Positions 42-42,304 of a stretch of DNA of 43,017 nt are shown here, in pieces. Source of the DNA: Enterobacteria phage phiJLA23; sequence record NC_047740.1. One strand, given 5' to 3'. The first letter of the stretch is position 1, and the number at the start of each line of letters is the position of its first letter. The position numbers and the translations under genes were made by a program. The notes below the pieces were generated by a model. It was not told where the DNA came from and made no database searches. It saw only the letters and a list, made by a program, of their open reading frames with translations.

Positions 42-470
42 TCCTTAACANGAAATCAAACATAGTATTTTAATAAAACACAACAACATAGCTATAGAGA
101 GTAGTTACAAGATATACATAGTAATATATATAATAATAATAATACTCTAAACCCTTNTTATATAAGGATTTATAAATGTAACTAATGCGTATCTTCGCGT
201 AAAAAGCGTATACAATTTTCAGCGGATGAGATTGTATACATCGAGTTACATCGGTTACGCGTATATAAAATAGCACGATTTGCTAAAGACTACAGCAGAA
301 GCCTTTGCTATAGTTACTCCATCGAAACGAAACATACTGACTAAGGAATACAAAATGACTAACTTCATCAAATCAGCAATCATCGCAGCAGCAGCAATCA
401 TGACGGTAGGTTGTTCTTCTGGTCCGCGCCCTGACGGATGGTGTGCGACTCAGGCGGGTGATGTTTGCGT
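42..470. repeat. Contig wrap-around overlap, copy 1 (matches ~42305-42720)
   Basis: Near-identical ~430 bp at both contig ends; second copy is N-rich. Circular or permuted genome assembled with overlap, or a terminal repeat. Confidence 0.8.
268..332 (+). promoter_or_regulatory. Composite early promoter: palindrome TAGCA-N5-TGCTA (271-285), hairpin, -10-like TATAGT (309-314), leader CATCGAAACGAAA (320-332)
   Basis: Same ordered module recurs at 13 or more other intergenic sites; palindrome centre about 43 bp upstream of predicted start; RBS aagga and ATG at 355 follow. Confidence 0.5.
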
Positions 471-600
471 AGCTAAGTGGAAAGGTGGTGTTATTGTTGC
501 AGCTGGAGAGGTTGATATTCGTTATGCTGGCATTGAGTCAAAGGTTGGTGGAGGCTACGGCGGCTCAGTTGCAGATCACGGCTCAAAGGAGTGGAAATAA
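355..600 (+). CDS. Small lipoprotein, candidate Cor/Llp-like superinfection-exclusion protein
   Basis: RBS aagga 7 nt before ATG 355; signal peptide [20 protein letters not shown] with lipobox-like TVGC; stop overlaps next start (TAATG). Longest ORF begins at 280. Confidence 0.6.
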
Positions 601-1562
601 TGCCTCAAGGTATCTTGATAGATTTGAATGACGGAAGGCCAGCAATGGAAATTACAGCTGGCTTGAGAGTTCCAGCCGTGACTGGTTCAATAAACACTAG
701 CGGGTTAAGCTCACCAGCATCATCATGGGATTTCGGTCTGACTATGACTCCTGGCTCAACAGCATTCTGCCTGCCAACTCAGGCTGTTTATGTTGATGCA
801 TATGATGTTATACCAGAAGTTTATTACATGAATGGGTTCTCGAAGGTTAATGATGGGGTTGGAAGGATTACATTAAGTAACTTTAACGGCGCTAATGGTC
901 GCATATTGCAGTTTGGCGGTCAGTGCTTTGAGATTTTACCAGCATCATCACAATCAAGCCCCGGTGTCCTTGTTGAGAACTCGACTGACTTTACAGCGAT
1001 ATCAAGTAATTCCAGATTAATGACTGCTGCTTGGGTTGGTGGCATCCAGGTTAATGGCTCTGCATCATTGCCAGTTGGCGGCATTCCTTTTGGTAAATGG
1101 GATAACCAAAACGTATCACTTGAAAGTGATGGTAGTACGATATGGTGTAGGGATATAACGTACAATGGGATTGATGATGTTGCTGCAAGTACTTACGTTC
1201 AGTTAGTTATTTTCAATAATACACCTCCAGTAGCTGGTCCGGGTTTAACGATATCAAACAGCGCTGGGCAGATAGTTTTCTCTAGCGTCAGGAGGCCATT
1301 TGTTCTAAGTGGATTTATGCAGATTAATAATGGTTACCAGTCGGTGAATGGTGGGTTCTTCCCAATACTTAGATGCGGAGCGACAACTAGAGTCACTGGT
1401 GGATATAATAACTTACGATACAAGGGTGTTTGCATGTCTGGAGGTTCAGTTAGAGCCGTCCCAGGCACTGTTATAGGTAACTATTCAACTCAAACTGGCG
1501 CGCAATTCCCATTTGATACAAACATATCAATGGCACTTCCATTTATTCCCAACTTCTACTAA
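600..1562 (+). CDS. Hypothetical Gly/Ser/Asn/Thr-rich protein; candidate receptor-binding protein
   Basis: RBS aaggag 8 nt before ATG 600; translationally coupled to the lipoprotein; convergent with J-like gene; composition typical of beta-rich adhesins. Function is inference. Confidence 0.45.
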   Translation: MPQGILIDLNDGRPAMEITAGLRVPAVTGSINTSGLSSPASSWDFGLTMTPGSTAFCLPTQAVYVDAYDVIPEVYYMNGFSKVNDGVGRITLSNFNGANGRILQFGGQCFEILPASSQSSPGVLVENSTDFTAISSNSRLMTAAWVGGIQVNGSASLPVGGIPFGKWDNQNVSLESDGSTIWCRDITYNGIDDVAASTYVQLVIFNNTPPVAGPGLTISNSAGQIVFSSVRRPFVLSGFMQINNGYQSVNGGFFPILRCGATTRVTGGYNNLRYKGVCMSGGSVRAVPGTVIGNYSTQTGAQFPFDTNISMALPFIPNFY

Positions 1563-1592
1563 AAGAAAAAGCCCCGAAAGGGGCTTAATCAT
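1561..1592. terminator. Bidirectional rho-independent terminator (hairpin gccccgaaaggggc 1571-1584)
   Basis: GC stem with GAAA loop flanked by A-run and T-rich tract, between convergent genes; identical hairpin recurs at 39227-39240. Confidence 0.7.
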
Positions 1593-4500
1593 TTACCATA
1601 CTCCAACCACTACCCTACCTCCATTTGGTAAATTAACAGTTATGCCGTTATTGTTTATTACGACAGTATTGTTGGTTCCGTTAAACGCGAAGTTACCATT
1701 GTTAGCGTACAAACTACCGCGAACGGTAGCGTTACTTAACTCAGCAAAACCAGATTTATCAATTGCCCAACCAGCACTACCAGCAACATAGTTGTTTGAT
1801 TGAATCCTGTTACCAATCTTCGCGTTAGTAATTGAACCATCCTGAATCACCGCGCTCTGAATGAACACCTGGTTATTCTCCACAACGAAAGGTAGCGACC
1901 ACTGACCGGAACCAGAACTAATGCCGTTACTGATTGCGAACCTGTTAGCATCAAAAATAAACTGACTACGAACATTTCCACCACTACCAGTTAACTCCAT
2001 GCTCATTCCAGCGCCGTACTCAACCCCATTGTACTTCAGGCCGAGCTTAACGCCGTACTGAACACCAACACCTTCGACCGTGGCATAAGAGTCAAGCTTC
2101 TGATTCAAAGCCGCCTCGTTATCACCAAGCCTTGAGCTTAATTGAGTATCAGCTGTAGCCCTGGCTTCGGTCTCCGTAGCAAGTGCGGTTTCAATTGTCG
2201 TAATCTGACCAACAATCTCATCATCAATCTGCGCTTTAAGCTGCGTGAGAGCGTCCACACGGGCCTGAGTTTCATCAGCAATCAAACTTACTGCCTGGCG
2301 ATATTCCGCCTTCCTGTTAAGATTCTCCTTTGTCATAACGCGTACGTCAGTATCATTTGCCAGGGCGTTCTCGATTATAGCTTCGGCCTGATTCTGGATG
2401 TCAGTATTTGCATCAATGGCGTTCTGGAGAAGATACTTGTAACCATCAGAGTTTTCGATATCAACCTTGATGTCACCAATGATCGCACTTACATCATCGG
2501 ATGCCATACCTCTGACAAAATCAGTCCACGGAGATACGTTACCTATCCTGTCAATAATCCTGGCCCTGTACCACCTCACGTTACCTGCTGGTAGAGTGGT
2601 GTGCCAATATTCGTATTGAGGATACGGAACCAGCGTAAGCAGTGACGCGTTCTCCGGTGTATATGTTCCGTCACCATTATCAGGAACCTGCTGAAGCTCG
2701 GTGTAAGCGGTATCAGCTGAGTCAGTAGGGAAGCCCCACTTAACCCTAATCCCGAAAACCTCATCATCAGAAGCCGTAATTACAGGCGGCTCCGAAGGTT
2801 CCCCAATCTTGCCAGTCAGGCTAACTGTCGTGATATCTGACCATGCCGACACTGATTTCTGGTCAGTTACGGCGCGAACCCTGACGTCGTAGATGCCAGC
2901 GTAAATGCCTTCAATATCAACCTCGGTATTAGCTGTCTCAGGTACGTTAATCCAGTTGCCGTTATTCTTGCGCCACTGTACGTTGTATGTTTTCGCATAC
3001 TGCACCTTGTCGTAACCAATAACCATCGTCTCAACGCTTAAGCCCTGAACTACCTTGCTGTAACTAGTAACGGTGATATTTTCAGGTGGTAAAATCCTGT
3101 CAGGGTCAACGATACTTGTTGGCCTGTCGTCAATATTCACACCATAGTCAATCTCGTCATACTTGTTCGGGTCATACTGCACCGCAGTGATGCTGTACTG
3201 GAATGAATCCTCGCCGTCCGTGTTTGCTTTTTGAATTCCTGTCACAACGTATTGCTGCAACGCCAGATTCTGCTTGTCGATTGCAAATACCGTATCCGGC
3301 TGAGGTGTGAAGCTGAATGCTGTATTCAGTTCAAGCGTCAACTTATCGGCAGATACTGAAGCGATAGTCCTGTACTCTGGGCTCCCATCTGGCTTGTTGA
3401 TTAAAATCCTGTCGCCAGGGTCAGCATCAATAGCGAATGGCACGAACACCTGCAAACCTGTAGCTTCAACAATTCGACCCGAAAGGTTTAATGTGTAGTT
3501 GCTTGACCAAGCCTGGTCATTAACGGCAATTACATCACCAATCATAGGAATCATGCCTTCGAGGCCAGTTGTGAACGTTACCGTTTCACTGCGAAGGTTT
3601 GTTTTCAGCAACCAACGCCCGCGACGGTTAGCCTCGCTTCGCCTTACGCAGCCAATTGCAGTCAAGTCTACAGGGTTGTAACCAAATCGGCGTGTTGCTT
3701 CTAAGTCGAATACTGGCTCGACATCCTGCTGGTAGTTGTTCTGCTCGTCATCAAACTGAACGTTGGCTGTCGTGTAAAGGCTCTTGTCGCTAGAGAATGT
3801 CCTGTTAAACAATCCATCAACAACGTTATCATTAGTGAACACATAGCTTGGCTGGCGCGGCCTGTCTACAACAATCCCGATTTGCTCACCATCATAGAAG
3901 GTTAAACCGCGGAAGATAGAACAGATGTCACGAATAAGCTGATACGCTTCCACTTTCTGCTGAATGACAACGTTACAAGTATATCGCGGCTCCATTCCAC
4001 CCTTACCATCAGGAACCATCTGGTCGCAGAATTGCGCTGCTTCATACAGACCCCACTTATCAATCTCTACACCAAGCTCTCGCTGATCCAATCCGTAGCG
4101 CTGACTAACCACCAGATCATATAAAACCCAGGCCGGGTTGTCAGACCATGCCATTTTAAAAGTTCCATTCCATGTGCCGCTATAAGCCCTTGTCTCTGGA
4201 TTGTAGTTTGTCGGTACGCGGATAAGTTTCCACTTTTTCTTAATGGCTATAGTTGGGATCCCGTTAGGGAACAGGTCAGAACTGAACTCCACGTAAACAA
4301 GTGCCGTAAGAGGGTAGCGGAATTTAGCATCGATTACTTCCTGATAGGTTGTGATCTGCATCCCGTTAACCAGGGTGCTATTTGTTGAGTCTGGCGTTAA
4401 CTTCCTAATACGAACAAGAGCGCTGCTAAACTCGGCTGGTAAGTTAACCCTGATACTGCGGTCGTAACCTGTTGTAGTTTTACCGTTAGCCACGCCTCTG

Positions 4501-5018
4501 ATATACTCAGTGTACGCTGAGCCATTAACTGATAAATCGATTGCATATTCACATGTTGTGCCATTTAAATCTCCATTCTCTTCTTGCTTAACGAGTCGAG
4601 GCCAGAACAGCTTGACTCGAATTGCTGATAGCTGACTGTTGTTGACTGCGATGATATAAGGTGTGTCATTATTGATTTCACGACTAACCTGAATCTCTGA
4701 AGCTGCGCCATCTAGTCCTGCGATGTAATCCTGCGACTGAGTACCAGACCTAAACTCTGCCGTAACACCTTCATAGTTGAATGAGTTATCCTGGTTTTGC
4801 ACCGGAACGTCAGCAAGGTAAACATCCTTGAGCGAGAAACTAGAATCAACCTCTCCATCAGCTACAGCCAGTAGCACCTTAATCTTGTTTAGTGAAATCA
4901 GGTTATCTTCTTGCTCTACAGGTGTGTGCGGCTTCTTGCTACCACCCTTGCTTCCATAAATCTTTGGCAAATCGGCCATATCATATAACCTCGTTGTTTG
5001 TTTAACCATTTGTGCCAT
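1593..5018 (-). CDS. Central tail fibre / host-specificity protein (lambda J-like)
   Basis: 1141 aa ORF as last gene of the tail module after I-like gene; size and position as for lambda J (established gene order). Confidence 0.8.
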   Translation of the reverse strand: MAQMVKQTTRLYDMADLPKIYGSKGGSKKPHTPVEQEDNLISLNKIKVLLAVADGEVDSSFSLKDVYLADVPVQNQDNSFNYEGVTAEFRSGTQSQDYIAGLDGAASEIQVSREINNDTPYIIAVNNSQLSAIRVKLFWPRLVKQEENGDLNGTTCEYAIDLSVNGSAYTEYIRGVANGKTTTGYDRSIRVNLPAEFSSALVRIRKLTPDSTNSTLVNGMQITTYQEVIDAKFRYPLTALVYVEFSSDLFPNGIPTIAIKKKWKLIRVPTNYNPETRAYSGTWNGTFKMAWSDNPAWVLYDLVVSQRYGLDQRELGVEIDKWGLYEAAQFCDQMVPDGKGGMEPRYTCNVVIQQKVEAYQLIRDICSIFRGLTFYDGEQIGIVVDRPRQPSYVFTNDNVVDGLFNRTFSSDKSLYTTANVQFDDEQNNYQQDVEPVFDLEATRRFGYNPVDLTAIGCVRRSEANRRGRWLLKTNLRSETVTFTTGLEGMIPMIGDVIAVNDQAWSSNYTLNLSGRIVEATGLQVFVPFAIDADPGDRILINKPDGSPEYRTIASVSADKLTLELNTAFSFTPQPDTVFAIDKQNLALQQYVVTGIQKANTDGEDSFQYSITAVQYDPNKYDEIDYGVNIDDRPTSIVDPDRILPPENITVTSYSKVVQGLSVETMVIGYDKVQYAKTYNVQWRKNNGNWINVPETANTEVDIEGIYAGIYDVRVRAVTDQKSVSAWSDITTVSLTGKIGEPSEPPVITASDDEVFGIRVKWGFPTDSADTAYTELQQVPDNGDGTYTPENASLLTLVPYPQYEYWHTTLPAGNVRWYRARIIDRIGNVSPWTDFVRGMASDDVSAIIGDIKVDIENSDGYKYLLQNAIDANTDIQNQAEAIIENALANDTDVRVMTKENLNRKAEYRQAVSLIADETQARVDALTQLKAQIDDEIVGQITTIETALATETEARATADTQLSSRLGDNEAALNQKLDSYATVEGVGVQYGVKLGLKYNGVEYGAGMSMELTGSGGNVRSQFIFDANRFAISNGISSGSGQWSLPFVVENNQVFIQSAVIQDGSITNAKIGNRIQSNNYVAGSAGWAIDKSGFAELSNATVRGSLYANNGNFAFNGTNNTVVINNNGITVNLPNGGRVVVGVW

Positions 5019-6362: not shown

Positions 6363-7127
6363 TTAGTTTTGGTTGGCTTTAGCTTGCAGGCTTGCAGCAG
6401 CGCAACCACCAAAGTCTAACTGATTATTTTCTCCGAACCTTAGCTTGCACGCACGAACCGTTCCGGCACAGAAGTCTTGCGATGGGTCAGTCACAGGCGC
6501 GTTGTCCTTATCGAAATATCGAGTACCCATGTAGTTACATCCATTACCTGATCGGTAAAGCCCTCGCTGTGCCCAATAACAAACAGACTGAACAAGTCGC
6601 GCTGGAATGTAAATACCATCCATATCCATTGGGCTAGTTAGTTCAAATGAGGCTGTATTGTAATCAACCTGCTTAGGTCGCTCAATGAAGTAAACCAGCT
6701 TGCGGTAATCCCCATCAGCAATGGTGCCATCTTCGTTAATATTCTCGCGGAGGGTGATCCAGATAGTAACTTTGGCCTGAACAAGTCCATTGTAAGTGCG
6801 GATAAGCGCAGATATATTCTGGTCTACGTTGGATACGACTAGAGTCACCTTATTTGCCTTGCCATCAGAGGTCATATTGATCCCCTGAATACCGAAAGGC
6901 CTTGCTCCGTACTCTTGCCCACGGAAGGTAATTGTCTTTGCTGGTAGTGGCTGGCCTGTTGATTGCGCCATCATGATTTCTTCTGGGGTATAGCTGATAT
7001 TCTCCCCATGAAATCGGTAAACTGGTGCACCAAACTTTCCTCCGTCAACCTCAATCAACGTGACAACCTCACCAGGGAACAAGCTTTGTAATTGATTCTC
7101 AAACTTAGTGCTCAATGGCGTAGCCAT
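6363..7127 (-). CDS. Minor tail protein (lambda L-like)
   Basis: 254 aa between M-like and K-like genes; C-terminal cysteine cluster as in the Fe-S-binding C-terminus of lambda gpL. Confidence 0.7.
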   Translation of the reverse strand: MATPLSTKFENQLQSLFPGEVVTLIEVDGGKFGAPVYRFHGENISYTPEEIMMAQSTGQPLPAKTITFRGQEYGARPFGIQGINMTSDGKANKVTLVVSNVDQNISALIRTYNGLVQAKVTIWITLRENINEDGTIADGDYRKLVYFIERPKQVDYNTASFELTSPMDMDGIYIPARLVQSVCYWAQRGLYRSGNGCNYMGTRYFDKDNAPVTDPSQDFCAGTVRACKLRFGENNQLDFGGCAAASLQAKANQN

Positions 7128-7150: not shown

Positions 7151-7165
7151 TAGCAATTAGTGCTA
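7151..7165 (-). promoter_or_regulatory. Isolated copy of palindrome TAGCA-N5-TGCTA at the M/L junction
   Basis: ttagcaattagtgctattt; overlaps M-like stop codon and lies about 23 nt before L start; no -10/leader module. Possible operator. Confidence 0.4.
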
Positions 7166-19494: not shown

Positions 19495-19700
19495 TAATTT
19501 CTCCAATAAAAACGCCCCTGGTAAGGGGCAGTTTATCATGATTACTTAACTCCAGCTAGCCTCATTAACCTAGNTCTTGGGTCGNNCNNNNNNNNNANNC
19601 CGTCTGNNTNNNCTTTNNANNTTTTNTANTCNATAAAAAAGCCCCTGAGTAAGGGGCAGTTTATCATGATTACTTAACTCCAGCTAGCCTCATTAACCTA
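19495..19700. repeat. Tandem duplicated segment (~19507-19575 and ~19631-19700) around an N-run: probable assembly artifact containing the terminase terminator
   Basis: Two near-identical copies of the large terminase 3' end plus terminator hairpin, separated by Ns 19575-19635. Confidence 0.7.
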
Positions 19701-21238
19701 GCTCTTGGGTCGTCACTCAAGTTCAATTCACAGTTTATTGCCATCGTTGTTGTATCTACAATGTCATCATGGGGGTGTGAATCGTCCGCAGTGAACGCCG
19801 AGAACTCAGTTAGCAGAGATGTAAGCCATGGCGCTGAGTCTGGCAGAACTACGTTACCAGCCTTAATCTGTGGTAATGCGCTCATCACCCTGGTTAACTT
19901 ATCTGTATCGGGAACGAAAGGCTCAATAGGAGTCCGCATCGTTCGACCTGCTGACTGGATAAGCCCTATGCCAGATGCTTTCTTCTCGATAATAACCTTA
20001 CGTAAGATACCATCTGTTTTACTAGCTGCTCGGTGCTTACTCTCAAAGTTCAGAAGAGTTTGCTCAAGCTCTGGAGCCTCCCATTTACCCCTAACCATAT
20101 CCAGAAGATAAATCTTGTTATCCTTTCTACCCCAAAGCTGGAACACAGAATAATCGCTGTAACTCTTCGTAGTCATGGCAGTATCAGCTGTAATGAAGCG
20201 GTAGTCATACTTGACTGGCGGCCTGTTGTTCTCGTCAAGCCTCACGAACCAATCTACGTTAATCAGGTTTCCACCTAAGGCTACTGGAGATTGTTGGTAC
20301 TGGCTTAGGAACGTGTACGGATCTGAGTCCCACATTGCCATCAAGTCATGCGCAGATTCCTTCTGCGGGAAGTAGCTGTAATACTTAACACCATCTCGCT
20401 CGACGTACTCGGATGAAAGCACGTCCTTCTCGAACTGCTCACGAATCCAGTCAGGAAGTTCATTCACATATTCTTCAGTGACCAGCGCCGGTATCTTCAA
20501 TACATCAAAGTCGATACCCATACCACCAGAAGTCATGAACCACGTCGAATCCTGCGTATGAAGCCTTTGCTGGATGGACAAAATCGGCGTAGCTTTACCT
20601 TTAACGCTACTCGCCCTACGTGAGCGAATGGTATTTTTAAGTAAAACGTGGACAGCTTCTCGCCTTACCTTGCTGAGCATATCGTCTGGCTTGTCTGGGT
20701 CATCAAGCATCAAGCAACCGCTATAGGTTTCAGTAATATAACCGCCACGAGCGCCGGTAATCTGACCGCCAATTGCCTTAGATATCGCTTCGAACCTAAC
20801 CTTTCCACTCTCGTCAAGAACCTGAATCTCGTCATCCTTGCACGTGCCGAACTTACAGGGCCATAGTTCCTGAAACTCAGCTGACTTTATAAGGTCGCGA
20901 ACACGCTTAGAGTTGCGCTTCACCAGACTGTCAGAGAATGAGAGGCTCAGATTTCGCACCTTCTTTAGCTTAAGCATTGAGTATACAGGGAAGTGTATTG
21001 AAGTAATCTCGGTCTTCCCGGCCCCGGGAGCCACGTTAATGATGGTATCCCTACGCTCGCCACTAATAACCTCGTCAATTATTCGGCAAAGGTACTTGTG
21101 ATGCCAGTTAGGGATGTATCGCTCTCCCTGGCTTAGCTGAAACCACACGCGAAGGAATGCCTCGAAGCTGTGAGTGGACAGCACTTTAACTGCCAGCTTT
21201 TCGGCTGGCGTCATTTCTTCCCAAACCAATGTCTTCAT
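19670..21238 (-). CDS. Terminase large subunit
   Basis: 522 aa; Walker A NVAPGAGKT near N-terminus; start overlaps small terminase stop (ATGA). Confidence 0.9.
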   Translation of the reverse strand: MKTLVWEEMTPAEKLAVKVLSTHSFEAFLRVWFQLSQGERYIPNWHHKYLCRIIDEVISGERRDTIINVAPGAGKTEITSIHFPVYSMLKLKKVRNLSLSFSDSLVKRNSKRVRDLIKSAEFQELWPCKFGTCKDDEIQVLDESGKVRFEAISKAIGGQITGARGGYITETYSGCLMLDDPDKPDDMLSKVRREAVHVLLKNTIRSRRASSVKGKATPILSIQQRLHTQDSTWFMTSGGMGIDFDVLKIPALVTEEYVNELPDWIREQFEKDVLSSEYVERDGVKYYSYFPQKESAHDLMAMWDSDPYTFLSQYQQSPVALGGNLINVDWFVRLDENNRPPVKYDYRFITADTAMTTKSYSDYSVFQLWGRKDNKIYLLDMVRGKWEAPELEQTLLNFESKHRAASKTDGILRKVIIEKKASGIGLIQSAGRTMRTPIEPFVPDTDKLTRVMSALPQIKAGNVVLPDSAPWLTSLLTEFSAFTADDSHPHDDIVDTTTMAINCELNLSDDPRARLMRLAGVK

Positions 21239-31686: not shown

Positions 31687-32297
31687 ACTCATAAACAAGA
31701 AAACTTACATGCTTACCTTTCGCATCATTACACCCGTAGTACCCATCAAATTCATTATGTAACTTCCATGCAAATCCGTCATCGCTAACTATTTCAACCT
31801 GGTCATTAATCGGGTCAAGTTTGAATTCATACTCATTGAGCAGGGTGAATGAGCCGTTCGTCATTACGCAAGTCGCAGTAATCATGAAAAAATCCTCCGG
31901 GCAATCTTTCTTCATTTCTTCGATATCAGCAATCATTCGGTCNNNCCATGTTTCGATATCAGTGTTCAGATAACCCNCTTCTNAACTATTTAAACCNGTT
32001 CATTAATCGGGTCAAGTTTGAATTCATACTCATTGAGCAGGGTGAATGAGCCGTTCGTCATTACGCAAGTCGCAGTAATCATGAAAAATCCTCCGGGCAA
32101 TCTTTCTTCATTTCTTCGATATCAGCAATCATTCGGTCGCGCCATGTTTCGATATCAGTGTTCAGATAATCCTCTTCGAAACTATAATCAAGACACCAAG
32201 CTAAATCCCAAACATCATTTTTATATCCAGCTTTACTCAACTCCTGCGCCACCATTGCCTGAAAGAGTTCCCATTGCTTATCAAAGGTTAATTTCAT
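31685..32297 (-). CDS. Hypothetical acidic protein (about 155 aa in the true genome; interrupted by an artifactual ~198-bp tandem duplication)
   Basis: ORFs 32079-32297 and 31685-31936 share ...RMIADIEEMKKDCPEDF; copies differ by homopolymer length and Ns at the junction. Confidence 0.45.
31786..32181. repeat. Tandem ~198-bp duplication with N-rich junction (probable assembly artifact)
   Basis: Unit 31786-31983 repeats at 31984-32181; Ns at 31943-31997; A6 versus A5 run between copies. Confidence 0.7.
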
Positions 32298-34974: not shown

Positions 34975-35448
34975 ATGGATTCAATTGACAAGCGTACTCT
35001 TAATGGTAACAACGGAACAATTCGCACAGAAGACAAGAAGCCGCGTAAGCGTCCATCAGGTTACTATGTACTAAAGGATGAAGTGAGAGCGGGATTAAGG
35101 GCGCGCCTTGAGATTGTATTGGACTTCTACGGCAGCAAGGCCAATCTAGCTAAGCAGCTAAAGGTTACGCGCCAGGCTGTAGAAGAATGGTGTAAGCGGG
35201 GAATGATTTCAGCTCGCGGCGCACAGCTTGCGCATAATCGATATAAGCGAACTGGCGAGGGGTTCAGGGCTACATTCTGCCGACCTGATTTACAGTTCGA
35301 CGGTAACGGCAAGCCTCTAACACTGCGATGCAAGAAGCGTCAGATGCTTCGAGTTGTTACAGAAGCTGAGTTAGCAACCAAGCCGCAGCGTAAATCATGG
35401 CGAAAGGTTAAGAAAGAAAGAGAAGAAGCACGAAAAGCTAAAGAGTAA
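34975..35448 (+). CDS. Putative HTH transcriptional regulator (Cro/YdaS-like)
   Basis: HTH-like segment SKANLAKQLKVTRQAVEEWCKRG; basic C-terminus; RBS gaggtgag; terminator 35454-35485 follows. Confidence 0.6.
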   Translation: MDSIDKRTLNGNNGTIRTEDKKPRKRPSGYYVLKDEVRAGLRARLEIVLDFYGSKANLAKQLKVTRQAVEEWCKRGMISARGAQLAHNRYKRTGEGFRATFCRPDLQFDGNGKPLTLRCKKRQMLRVVTEAELATKPQRKSWRKVKKEREEARKAKE

Positions 35449-35500: not shown

Positions 35501-36424
35501 ATGAATTACGACAAGAATGAAGTAATACCTAAAATGGCTGGATTGTGGAAATCATTTTATGCAAAGGAGCTTGGTTGGAATGATAGACACCTTAGCAAGA
35601 AGCACGGGCCGTGCCCTTATTGCTTTGGTACTGACAGATTCAGGTTTACAGACGAAATAGGAAGCGAAAAAGGTAATGGGGCCGCAGTTTGCTCTAAGTG
35701 CGGCAGTGACTCAGGAATAGGCTGGGTTATGAAATGTTCCGGCCTTAGATTTGTGGAAGCTATAAATTTACTTGGCGACTGGCTTAATTTGACTCCCGTC
35801 GAAATCATAGTGAAGGCAAACAAAGCAGCGAGCCGAGTTCAGAGATATAACTTTGGCGCTCAGGCATCCATTGAATCAATCGAGAAGGTAATCTCTCGCA
35901 CCAAGTCTGTAGAAATGACACAGCTTACGAGATTTGAAGCAATTATTACTGAACGGGAATACAAAATAGGAATAAAGGGGTCTGGAGAAGAAATTATAGC
36001 CGAGCAATGCTTTATGGTTTACGAGGATGGTTTATCAGATGAGCCTTGTAACGTAAAGTTTATAGATGAAGAGGGTAATGAGTCATATCTCGCAAAAGAC
36101 TACACTCGCGGCTCGGTTGTTCCGGTAAGTAAATGTAGTGATGGCGCTATCTACCTCACTGTTGGCTGGATTAACGCACTACATGTATCGGCATGCACAA
36201 AAAGGACAACTTACGACTGCCTAACTCACCACAACTTAGAAATGGTTGCTTATGAACTCAGGAATAAAGAGTGCAGGATAGCTTGCTTAGCTGATGAAAA
36301 GGAGTCGCTTTATGTTGCTGATGATAGAGGTCTAAAAGTCGTAATACCTAAAGGTGGCAATTTCAAGATGGGGCTTGAAAGAAGGTTATATAACCCGCAA
36401 GATCTGATAGATAAGCATTCATAG
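35501..36424 (+). CDS. Putative DNA primase (zinc-binding N-terminus)
   Basis: Cys motif CPYCFG...CSKCGS typical of primase zinc-binding domains; adjacent to helicase/regulator. Confidence 0.5.
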   Translation: MNYDKNEVIPKMAGLWKSFYAKELGWNDRHLSKKHGPCPYCFGTDRFRFTDEIGSEKGNGAAVCSKCGSDSGIGWVMKCSGLRFVEAINLLGDWLNLTPVEIIVKANKAASRVQRYNFGAQASIESIEKVISRTKSVEMTQLTRFEAIITEREYKIGIKGSGEEIIAEQCFMVYEDGLSDEPCNVKFIDEEGNESYLAKDYTRGSVVPVSKCSDGAIYLTVGWINALHVSACTKRTTYDCLTHHNLEMVAYELRNKECRIACLADEKESLYVADDRGLKVVIPKGGNFKMGLERRLYNPQDLIDKHS

Positions 36425-36502: not shown

Positions 36503-39220
36503 ATGGCAATTTATGACGCTGGAACTGCATCGCTTGCAGCTGACGGAACTGTAACTGGTGTTGGCACCACGTGGAGGCAACCACTAACGCTAATCCGAGT
36601 TGGCGCAACAATGATTTTTAACACCACCCCGACAAGCATTGTTACTATCGCTGAGATTTTAAGCGATACAGAGATTCGTGTATTCAATGATAAAGGTTTT
36701 ACTGCGCCAGCTGGGACTCAGTACTCAATCCTTGCTCATGACGGAATTACTGTCCAAGGTCTTGCTCAGGACGTTGCTGAGACACTTCGTTATTATCAGT
36801 CCCGTGAAACAGAGGTTGCAGCGGCAGTTGATGCTTTTAATCAATTTGATTCTGATTCTTTCCAGCAAAGCGTAAATAATGTCAACATGCAATCTCAGCA
36901 AGTTGCTGTTGATGCTGCTCAAGTTTCTTCTGACAAAGATCAGGTATCTTCTGATAGGCAGTTAGCTGAAAGTAGCGCTAACTCGGCTTCCTCTTCAGCT
37001 ACAATAGCAAGCTCTGCTGCGGCTTCTGTGTCATCTGCTCTTGTAGTTGATTTCTCAAATGGTGGAGAAATAAACTCAAGAACTCAGCCTGCAATTTACT
37101 TTAATGACAATCATGTTTCGGTTTATTACTGGTCTGGTAGCGTTCCAAAATCCATACCACAAAACTCATCACCACAGTCTACAGGTGGTATTGGAGTTGG
37201 TTTTTGGATTCAACAGGATTACACAAGAAGGTTTGAATCAGTATCAGCAATGACAAACTCTGCCAGAATTTATGACTTAGAGGTTGTCTATTGTGATTCT
37301 TACATTGGTGGTCTTGGTTATGGTGGTGGGTTCTTTGTTTGTAAGCCGGAGTCATCTTTATCATATGGATTATCTTCAGGATTGGTTTTTGAATCAAGTA
37401 CAGGTTATTACTGGGAAAGAATCTGTAGCGGGGAGCTGTCGCCTTGCGAACTTGGGGCCATTAAGTCATCGACATCAGACTCAACGACACAGATACAGCA
37501 AATCCTAGACTCCGGGCTGGCATTAAAGCTTGATAGCGACTACATGGCATCAAACCTGGTAATGAGAAATAAATCTTGCTCTATAATTGGTTTTGGCAAG
37601 CACAAGTCAAGAATAACTCAGCTTAGTTCATCAATTGGCTCTTTAATTGAGGTTTCTGATTCTTGCTCGCTCATTCATATTGAAGGTATTGCTCTTTACG
37701 GCACTGGAGCCCAGCAAGACACGGCGTTTACTGATGGTACTGCTGGGATTTACATCCCTACGCCGACTGGGTTATCAACCAATTACCCATTCAACACTGG
37801 TGCTGACCCTAGGAGGGACTTAACGATAAGAAACACTCACATTGCTGGGTTTGATGTTTACGGAATTTTCGTTGCTGCTGGTAACTACTCTCCTGTTCTT
37901 GATGATGTTCTTATTCAGCACATAAAAAAAGACGGATTGATTAACGAAACAACAGACTTCACATGGAATAACATACAGGTAAACACCTGTGGAAGAAATT
38001 GTCTAATACTTAGGAATGCCGGAAACTGTAGGATTGTTGGCGGTAAGTTTATTTGGTCGGGTTGGTCGGCTTATAATGAGCTTGATGATGCTTATGGCAT
38101 CCTGATTGATAACTGCCAAAACATCACCATGTCAGCTATAGAGGCGCAGGATTGCGGTGGTGACGGTGTTAGAATTGTAAACTCTAGAAATGTGGTATTT
38201 AATGGATTAAATAGTAACAGGAACAGCATAAACTCAAACTACAGAGATTATAACGTTTCGTTTTCAAATAGCTCTGTAAGAATCTATGGTTTTGTTGGGC
38301 TTAACTATGTATCTAACAATGGCGATGGAAGGCCAACTTCCGCTGGCAACTTCAGATTCCTTGACTCAAGATCTGATGTTGTGATCGATGGGGTTGTTGA
38401 ATCTGGTTACTTTGGCCCAAATTTCTCAGGGGACACTAACTATGTTGCTGAGTATTCAGGAAACCTGAAGATAAACGGACTGATAGACAAAAGGAAGACA
38501 AGAATTAAGCCAGCAAACGACACTTCAGCTTTTGATGGGGTCTCTAATACACCAGTATTCGCCGCAGCGGCATCATCAGTTGGGCAGCAATATTGGCTAA
38601 GGCTTTCACAGGCAAATAAAGATAAGATTATATGCACTGGATTTGACCCGTCACTAGGTTTCACCGCTACATGCAATATATCGCCGACCATAACTGTTGC
38701 TGAAGACTTTAACCTTATAGCTATAGGGACTGGTTTTGGAGTTAATAGTAATGCTCTTTACTTGCAGTATAACGTGATGGCATCAGGAGAACACAGTGTC
38801 TCATTGTTAATATCAGCATCAGGTGAAACAAGAGTTTTATCAGGTGTGTTGCCAGTCTCATCAAGAATGGTCAATGGTGGTACTTACAATATTGCTCTTG
38901 GTTTTGATGTATCTGGTAAGGTTTGGTGGAGCATCTTAAACCTGAATACTGGATTTAGAGTTAGAAGGTCATTTGATTCTCAGTATATAGATATTGATGT
39001 CAGACCTATACTAACAACAGCTGGTAACTATGTAACCATGTATTCAGGTCAAGGCGCTGGTGATGTAGCTTGCTCTGGATATGGCTTTGGTGTTTACGTT
39101 GGCAGCTATTCAGATGAGTCTGATTATTGCGCTTCAAGATACTATTCGCTTAAAGGTGGTGTTGATTTGACAAAACAATCAGTATTTTTGAGTTTGAATG
39201 GTGATGTAACGTCACAATAA
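36503..39220 (+). CDS. Lateral tail fibre / tailspike-like protein (predicted beta-helix, possible glycan-binding or depolymerase domain)
   Basis: 905 aa; conserved-looking N-terminal anchor, Ser/Ala-rich linker, long Asn/Gly/Ser-rich repetitive region typical of beta-helix fibres; RBS aggag. Confidence 0.7.
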   Translation: MAIYDAGTASLAADGTVTGVGTTWRQPLTLIRVGATMIFNTTPTSIVTIAEILSDTEIRVFNDKGFTAPAGTQYSILAHDGITVQGLAQDVAETLRYYQSRETEVAAAVDAFNQFDSDSFQQSVNNVNMQSQQVAVDAAQVSSDKDQVSSDRQLAESSANSASSSATIASSAAASVSSALVVDFSNGGEINSRTQPAIYFNDNHVSVYYWSGSVPKSIPQNSSPQSTGGIGVGFWIQQDYTRRFESVSAMTNSARIYDLEVVYCDSYIGGLGYGGGFFVCKPESSLSYGLSSGLVFESSTGYYWERICSGELSPCELGAIKSSTSDSTTQIQQILDSGLALKLDSDYMASNLVMRNKSCSIIGFGKHKSRITQLSSSIGSLIEVSDSCSLIHIEGIALYGTGAQQDTAFTDGTAGIYIPTPTGLSTNYPFNTGADPRRDLTIRNTHIAGFDVYGIFVAAGNYSPVLDDVLIQHIKKDGLINETTDFTWNNIQVNTCGRNCLILRNAGNCRIVGGKFIWSGWSAYNELDDAYGILIDNCQNITMSAIEAQDCGGDGVRIVNSRNVVFNGLNSNRNSINSNYRDYNVSFSNSSVRIYGFVGLNYVSNNGDGRPTSAGNFRFLDSRSDVVIDGVVESGYFGPNFSGDTNYVAEYSGNLKINGLIDKRKTRIKPANDTSAFDGVSNTPVFAAAASSVGQQYWLRLSQANKDKIICTGFDPSLGFTATCNISPTITVAEDFNLIAIGTGFGVNSNALYLQYNVMASGEHSVSLLISASGETRVLSGVLPVSSRMVNGGTYNIALGFDVSGKVWWSILNLNTGFRVRRSFDSQYIDIDVRPILTTAGNYVTMYSGQGAGDVACSGYGFGVYVGSYSDESDYCASRYYSLKGGVDLTKQSVFLSLNGDVTSQ

Positions 39221-42185: not shown

Positions 42186-42304
42186 TGTATATAGCTGTAA
42201 AACTCACATAAATACGCTTTGATGCTCTGTACGCCGCATGAATGCTGAATGTAACCCTTGTAACCAATGTATCCACCAAATTTGCACCCTATCTATATAT
42301 ATAT

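Follow-up and report, generated by a model that had tools for sequence, protein, structure and literature searches.

A lipoprotein gene coupled to a probable LptD-type receptor-binding protein gene in Enterobacteria phage phiJLA23

The gene pair and its homologues

Two adjoining plus-strand genes at the beginning of the genome sequence of Enterobacteria phage phiJLA23 (NC_047740.1) were analysed; the window hereafter means the whole stretch of 43,017 nucleotides. The first open reading frame (ORF A) encodes a small lipoprotein, and the second (ORF B) a 320-residue protein that was compared with the receptor-binding proteins (RBPs) of phages dependent on LptD. The DNA of the locus (first 1.7 kb) was 99.6% identical to that of phage C119, 99.4% identical to that of phiKP26, and 96-97% identical to that of the AHP24 group and Rogue1. 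By these matches the phage belongs to the genus Rogunavirus among the T1-like coliphages. The features of the gene pair are the following.

355..600, plus strand: ORF A, gene for a putative exclusion lipoprotein of the Rtp45 type, 81 aa; ATG at 355, TAA at 598-600; Pfam PF24052, PDB 9RPS_D
342-347, plus strand: Shine-Dalgarno sequence of ORF A, TAAGGA
600..1562, plus strand: ORF B, gene for a putative LptD-type RBP (DUF6453), 320 aa; ATG at 600, TAA at 1560-1562; Pfam PF20051, PDB 9RPT_C
586..602, plus strand: coupling junction read from the sequence, with the Shine-Dalgarno sequence of ORF B (AAGGAG, 586-591) and the TAATG overlap (598-602)

The stop codon of ORF A and the start codon of ORF B share one nucleotide, and the Shine-Dalgarno sequence of ORF B sits within ORF A. 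The same 1-nt overlap was observed between the lipoprotein and RBP genes of AHP24, SU57, G8, Rtp, Bas01, HK578, and OzMSK. We propose that ORF A and ORF B form a single, translationally coupled transcript. A previous reading of the window from the sequence only had described a small plus-strand lipoprotein coupled through TAATG to a 320-residue gene, and both parts of this description held. That the larger protein is rich in Gly, Ser, and Asn, as it also stated, is mildly true (G 12.2%, S 10.3%, N 7.5%).

When ORF B was searched against Pfam, it matched PF20051 (DUF6453) with an E value of 1.3e-138 and 461.7 bits (cut-off 25). The match spanned residues 4-297 of 320 and the entire profile (1-291 of 291), placing the protein in this family. 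Among all PDB sequences, only one protein was matched, namely chain C of 9RPT, 9RPW, and 9RQI. This is the RBP of phage Oekolampad on LptDE, and the alignment with 9RPT_C (E 2.7e-67) paired residues 2-320 with 2-321 at 42-44% identity; an alignment of this length implies, for ORF B, a predicted double beta-sandwich fold with loops at the tip. In cryo-EM structures, the Oekolampad RBP contacts LptDE on its extracellular side (PMC12685063). Its Gln299, a contact residue according to the same source, was found opposite a Gln in ORF B.

Furthermore, ORF B was 99.1% identical to its counterpart in AHP24, 88.1% to OzMSK_038, and 41% to Rtp44 and the Bas01 protein over the full length. In a preprint (10.64898/2026.04.02.716166), RBPs of the LptD type were delimited by an identity above 30% at a coverage above 99% relative to members whose dependence on LptD is proven, and ORF B lies within these limits with respect to Oekolampad (42-44%), Bas01 (41%), and OzMSK (88%). 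Two mutants with altered lptD loops are not infected by OzMSK, and resistance also follows from engineered deletion of loop 11; moreover, the near-identical Rogue1 homologue of ORF B has already been modelled as an LptD RBP (PMC13035648).

ORF A gave a comparably clear result. It matched Pfam PF24052 with an E value of 3.6e-38 and 129.8 bits (cut-off 27), residues 1-80 being aligned with the whole profile (1-80 of 80). The only significant match in the PDB (E up to 10) was 9RPS_D, which is Rtp45 on LptDE (E 2.4e-33). The identity was 72.8% to Rtp45, 76.5% to the Bas01 lipoprotein, and 88.9% to OzMSK_039, and the full-length matches to PF24052 and Rtp45 place ORF A among the Rtp45-type proteins. 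Rtp45 is described as a 'superinfection exclusion' lipoprotein and its structure was determined at the periplasmic side of LptDE; it holds a Cys30-Cys38 disulfide, and its strand 30-35 pairs with LptD 318-323 (PMC12685063). Both cysteines were retained in ORF A (C30 ATQAG DV C38, compared with C30 ATQAS GV C38 in Rtp45), and the LptD-pairing strand 30-35 (CATQAx) was conserved. As read from the sequence, ORF A begins with a 19-residue signal peptide followed by the lipobox Cys20, and position +2 is occupied by Ser and not by Asp. Hence, sorting of the lipoprotein to the outer membrane, into its inner leaflet, is predicted.

The position of the pair pointed in the same direction. Maffei et al. 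(2021) linked LptD to a 'bona fide RBP locus' located downstream of gpJ (PMC8594841), and the present pair was found directly downstream of the gpJ homologue, for which the features are as follows.

1593..5018, minus strand: J-like central tail fibre gene, 1141 aa; Pfam PF24801, PF13550, PF09327; PHROG 31; PDB 9L9P_S, 23GD_D, lambda gpJ 8IYK_J
nt 1692-2108 (aa 971-1109), minus strand: C-terminal Phage_Tail_Tip domain of J, to which the RBP presumably attaches

ORF B and J are convergent and 30 nt separate their stop-codon ends (1562 and 1593). This synteny with J was unchanged in Rtp, Bas01, SU57, OzMSK, and SH6. Docking of the RBP on J has been put forward in PMC8594841 and the above preprint, and the RBP of the window presumably attaches to J likewise. 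In the conservation profile of ORF B, the N-terminal approximately 20 residues were the most conserved portion, and these residues probably dock on the tip of J. The combination of a conserved N-terminus and variable loops agrees with the view that conserved surfaces of these RBPs attach to the tail and variable loops touch LptD (PMC13035648).

Taken together, these findings suggest, with a probability that we put at about 0.9, that this locus corresponds to the LptD-type 'bona fide RBP module' known from small T1-like siphophages. The sequence-only reading had proposed the pairing of an RBP with a receptor-masking lipoprotein and had left the receptor unnamed. The homology searches of both proteins bore out the pairing (PF20051 and 9RPT_C; PF24052 and 9RPS_D), ORF B being homologous to the LptDE-bound RBP of Oekolampad and ORF A to Rtp45, and on the strength of these homologies LptD is predicted as the receptor with high confidence.

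The lipoprotein was much more conserved than its partner, with 73-77% identity to the Rtp and Bas01 proteins against 41% for the RBP. This gap fits a constrained periplasmic surface of an essential protein as opposed to extracellular loops, or an independent exchange of the two genes.

Transcription signals around the pair

Upstream of ORF A and downstream of ORF B, the following elements were found.

271..285, plus strand: dyad TAGCACGATTTGCTA, upstream part of the promoter and putative site of a helix-turn-helix (HTH) regulator; centred near -43 relative to the inferred start of transcription
306..314, plus strand: extended -10 element TGcTATAGT, aligned with TATAGT, TATATT, and TATTAT of other copies
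320..332, plus strand: start-of-transcript or leader motif CATCGAAACGAAA, repeated behind dyads and conserved in other phages
1569..1586, both strands: hairpin AAGCCCC-GAAA-GGGGCTT between ORF B and J, from folding and a terminator scan

The three upstream parts form a composite element in which a TAGCAC-N4-TGCTA dyad is followed after 21-23 nt by a -10 hexamer and then by CATCGAAACGA; the spacer of the lipoprotein copy is 23 nt. With one mismatch or fewer, the dyad gave 19 strand-matches at 12 sites of the window compared with 0.94 expected. The leader CATCGAAACGA occurred in five exact copies, each downstream of a dyad site and in the correct orientation, and in six matches when one mismatch was allowed (0.52 expected). 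Most dyad sites lay 21-23 nt from a -10-like hexamer and 57-69 nt upstream of a gene start. The genes behind the element include two helicases, an Erf/SSB operon, and several small non-structural ORFs, and no complete element preceded a capsid or tail gene in the window. The element preceded the lipoprotein gene in AHP24, SU57, G8, Rtp, Bas01, and OzMSK, even with a methylase or anti-repressor gene inserted immediately upstream, and it was also kept in Klebsiella phage FZ10; it was not present upstream of the lipoprotein gene of the Dhillonvirus HK578.

We infer that transcription of the operon starts near 321. No -35 hexamer was found 16-18 nt from the -10 element, and a generic sigma-70 consensus scan of 200-354 gave no -35/-10 pair; a standard sigma-70 promoter for the operon was excluded by this empty scan. 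TTGCTA within the dyad was likewise rejected as a -35 hexamer by its spacing of 21-23 nt to the -10 element in every copy. The promoter annotated in AHP24 (TTGACA-N19-TATAAT with two mismatches, approximately 220 nt before the ATG) was judged less convincing than the conserved composite element.

Both flanks of the pair are occupied by genes on the opposite strand, and late read-through is therefore geometrically impossible. This agrees with the sequence-only reading, which had attributed the pair to a copy of an early composite promoter and not to read-through from late genes. The repeated element at 271-332 is indeed real and conserved; the word 'early' expresses a presumed timing.

A regulator that may govern this element is encoded in the window.

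34975..35448, plus strand: candidate composite-promoter regulator, a 157-aa HTH protein; 85% identity to OzMSK_049; synteny

OzMSK_049 is annotated as a T1 gp23-like 'transcriptional regulator', and the 157-residue product showed weak matches to Cro/YdaS HTH families under the Pfam cut-off. By synteny, it was assigned as the homologue of Rtp52 and T1 gp23, and it may act at the dyad. The description of the Rtp genome reportedly lists about ten conserved inverted repeats for the regulator Rtp52.

Dyads were also observed apart from complete elements. A perfect copy, TAGCACTAATTGCTA, lies at 7151-7165 (minus strand), 23 nt before the ATG of an L-like tail gene (6363-7127, minus strand), without a -10 hexamer or leader; in OzMSK, a similar bare dyad lies 24 nt before the tailspike gene. 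The bare dyad of the window may be a regulatory site within the late or structural genes. A degenerate copy at 35426 was found near the primase gene (35501-36424) and the gene for a 905-aa lateral tail fibre (36503-39220, plus strand), which follows directly after the primase gene. The latter gene thus stands in the replication arm, so that a second host-recognition gene is likewise outside the late operon.

Downstream of the pair, the hairpin at 1569-1586 had folding energies of -14.7 and -18.0 kcal/mol, with z about -4.4 on each strand. The canonical U-tract (TTTTTCTTTT) was present on the minus (J) strand only, the tail on the plus strand being AATCATTT, and the consensus terminator scan called the hairpin solely on the minus strand. 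The annotators of AHP24 and SU57 label the corresponding hairpin a bidirectional terminator. The hairpin is a canonical terminator for J and a weaker one for the lipoprotein/RBP pair. Accordingly, the terminator that the sequence-only reading had regarded as shared with the J-like gene is shared as a hairpin on both strands, its U-tract serving the J strand only.

The beginning of the locus recurs at the other end of the window, where positions 33 to about 415 reappear at 42304 to about 42686 with 85-96% identity, followed by N-rich miscalls. We rejected this repeated promoter and lipoprotein gene start (42304 onward) as a true duplication; it looks like a degraded, low-quality overlap of a circular assembly. 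The window holds 230 N in total, which are clustered. Elsewhere, tandem direct repeats at 19508-19712, upstream of the terminase large-subunit region, consist of two 77-nt units 128 nt apart, each holding a terminator-like GC hairpin, and further tandem direct repeats at 31787-32185 consist of interleaved units of about 100 nt with a spacing of about 197 nt.

Weighing the alternatives

Several observations weigh against an LptD module. ORF B is just 41-44% identical to the best-studied RBPs (Oekolampad, Bas01, and Rtp), and conservation within it is lowest in the loops predicted to contact the receptor. ORF A has a 5-residue Gly-rich insertion relative to Rtp45 near the C-terminus (about residues 61-70). 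The exclusion role of Rtp45 appears to be based on the structure and not on an in vivo exclusion assay (PMC12685063), and LptD binding and the exclusion mechanism would be carried over to this phage from homologues. In addition, the terminator of the pair on the plus strand has no U-tract, and both the family label of ORF B and the virion proteomics of relatives, considered below, also count on this side. The level of identity to Rtp44, Bas01, and Oekolampad and the variability of the presumed tip loops would suit a DUF6453 protein that has switched to another outer-membrane protein, the lipoprotein then masking that one, and the RBP modules of this family are exchanged horizontally (PMC8594841). 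Such a switch is nevertheless very unlikely, because ORF B shares 88% identity with the OzMSK RBP, the LptD dependence of OzMSK being experimental, the lipoprotein is 73-77% identical to those of Rtp and Bas01 with the LptD-pairing strand kept, and all tested members of the family were mapped to LptD (PMC8594841; preprint 10.64898/2026.04.02.716166). Hardly credible, in our view, is the idea that ORF B is a membrane or 'moron' protein for host takeover that is co-expressed with the lipoprotein and missing from the virion. Its family, PHROG 1265, does carry the label 'membrane protein; moron, auxiliary metabolic gene and host takeover', its RefSeq name is 'membrane protein', and the gene stands behind a promoter of non-late type; mass spectrometry of AHP24-type virions identified seven structural proteins, and the ORF B homologue was not among them (PMC4070988). 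However, the latter work analysed gel bands only, in which a low-copy tip protein would escape detection, and the virion papers on Rogue1 and AHP24, covering the major gel bands, are uninformative for a tip protein. ORF B has neither a hydrophobic segment nor a signal peptide, and its sequence is rich in G, S, N, and T, with a polar N-terminus. Its homologue was seen on the extracellular face of LptDE (PMC12685063), the homologue in Klebsiella Webervirus phages lies in the late tail operon right behind J, and that in Kuravirus phages comes after a tail-tip fibre gene.

An LptD-type module thus remains the preferred reading of the two proteins, and a separate choice concerns the class of their promoter. 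Because the element has no -35 hexamer and its dyad is centred near -43, it fits a class dependent on a phage regulator, possibly middle, at least as well as an early class. A dyad near -42/-43 without a -35 hexamer is the geometry of class II activator promoters such as those of Mu Mor and C. Alternatively, the dyad could be the operator of a repressor that shuts off genuinely early promoters used constitutively by host RNA polymerase, and not the site of an activator of middle transcription. The candidate regulator has a Cro/lambda-repressor-like HTH, several copies of the promoter, including that at 306-314, have a TGn extended -10 element that could dispense with a -35 hexamer, and the bare dyads about 23 nt before the start codons of two structural genes resemble blocking sites. 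The fixed spacing of 21-23 nt from dyad to -10 element, the centre near -42/-43, and the missing -35 hexamer argue against an operator, as does the lack of the TGn extension in many copies. We regard the repressor as a genuine possibility but would not bet on it. In the literature searched, no transcriptome of Drexlerviridae and no record of transcription timing in T1-like phages was found.

Known systems and the proposed course of infection

The closest known system is the module of Rtp44/Rtp45 and Oekolampad (Maffei et al. 2021, PMC8594841; Dunbar et al. 2025, PMC12685063; Black et al. 2025, PMC13035648). Both modules combine the DUF6453 and PF24052 families, with the lipoprotein gene preceding the RBP gene at a 1-nt overlap and the pair convergent with and adjoining the J-like gene; the homology to both solved proteins is full-length, and Drexlerviridae members of the module have the promoter element upstream as in the window. 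The RBP of the window differs from those of Rtp44, Bas01, and Oekolampad in being the Rogue1/OzMSK/SU57 allele (320 aa, 88-99% identity in the group), and the lipoprotein has 81 residues compared with 76 in Rtp45.

The parallel to T5 pb5/Llp and Cor drawn by the sequence-only reading stood as pairing logic, but did not extend to family membership, as no sequence similarity was detected. The T5 genes llp and oad are transcribed divergently, each from its own promoter, one early and one late, whereas the window has a single operon. The likeness lies in a monomeric tip RBP (pb5, from oad) acting on an outer-membrane beta-barrel and in a periplasm-facing lipoprotein that blocks binding from the other side of the barrel. 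The receptors differ (FhuA in T5, LptD here), and Llp acts by long-range allostery whereas Rtp45 displaces extracellular loop 4 sterically (PMC12685063). Cor of T1, phi80, N15, and HK022 is similarly a small phage lipoprotein beside host-specificity genes that causes exclusion at the receptor; however, it blocks FhuA, and the homologue of ORF A targets LptD. When the PDB was searched with ORF B (E up to 1), 9RPT_C alone was returned and no pb5-type match; for ORF A, the only significant matches were PF24052 in Pfam and Rtp45 in the PDB (E up to 10), and NCBIfam gave nothing, so that no Llp or Cor homologue appeared. Membership of the Cor, Llp, or pb5 families was ruled out by these searches and only the analogy was kept. 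The name 'Cor' given to the ORF A homologue in the annotation of phage G8 is a name transfer and not shown homology.

Klebsiella Webervirus phages encode a DUF6453 homologue with about 31% and a PF24052 lipoprotein with about 54% identity to the proteins of the window, and the lipoprotein gene (FZ10) keeps the dyad, -10, and CATCGAAACGAA promoter as in the window. In contrast to the window, the DUF6453 gene has the orientation of J and comes next after it, 1 nt apart (Domnhall), and is thus part of the late operon, and the lipoprotein gene lies about 10 kb off in the replication arm, flanked by the VRR-NUC and Dam genes. The E. coli and Shigella phages carry the RBP gene in inverted orientation, coupled to the lipoprotein gene ahead of it, and the RBP of the window therefore uses the promoter of the lipoprotein; no discussion of this use was found in the literature searched. 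Tentatively, the RBP gene may have moved from the late tail operon to behind the lipoprotein gene, under the dyad-dependent, -35-less promoter of the replication-gene regulon of the HTH regulator. A single phage factor would then control both receptor masking and RBP synthesis, and both would begin ahead of late expression. The literature searched held no experimental description of the dyad regulon or of such re-wiring of RBP timing for Drexlerviridae.

Remote homologues of both proteins were also observed in Kuravirus podophages (about 76-77 kb, C3 morphology; phage 172-1, NC_028903, and Bas91, PQ850614). Their DUF6453 protein has 344 residues (Pfam E 2.3e-24; match to 9RPT_C, E 6.4e-9), and its gene lies directly after that of a 322-aa tail-tip fibre solved in SU10 (7Z4B); PF09327 is found both in this fibre and in the C-terminus of the window's J. 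Their PF24052 lipoprotein (93 aa, E 2.4e-36) has the motif RPDGWCA..GVCV and is encoded among small early genes. The BASEL-2 paper describes the Kuravirus phages as O-antigen dependent only and makes no link to LptD. The homology suggests that LptDE may be these phages' terminal receptor.

On the model of the homologues, infection would proceed as follows. ORF B would be the terminal RBP, whose distal loops enter the lipopolysaccharide translocon LptDE through its extracellular lumen and thereby lead to commitment to infection. ORF A would be made in the infected cell from a transcript that starts at the pair's own promoter of dyad, -10 element, and leader and ends at the hairpin shared with J. 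After sorting to the outer membrane by the Lol pathway, it would bind LptD from the periplasmic side, at a site between LptE and LptM, and its hairpin would thread up the lumen of the barrel and displace extracellular loop 4. Rtp45 shifts this loop by up to 20 A, preventing RBP binding (PMC12685063). The RBPs of incoming or freshly released phages would thus be blocked, resulting in superinfection exclusion, and the progeny would be spared from loss on cell debris.

The module, its receptor, and the structures of both homologues are already published and are not new biology; only the transcriptional wiring, that is, the regulated promoter shared by the two genes and the contrast with Webervirus, goes beyond the literature searched. 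LptD is essential and conserved, and phages that use it therefore matter for therapy and phage steering; they also cause outbreaks among fhuA strains in laboratories and fermenters. For the phage of the window, assignment to the LptD class predicts the receptor and a resistance mutation (deletion of lptD loop 11), as well as cross-protection by the lipoprotein against other LptD phages.

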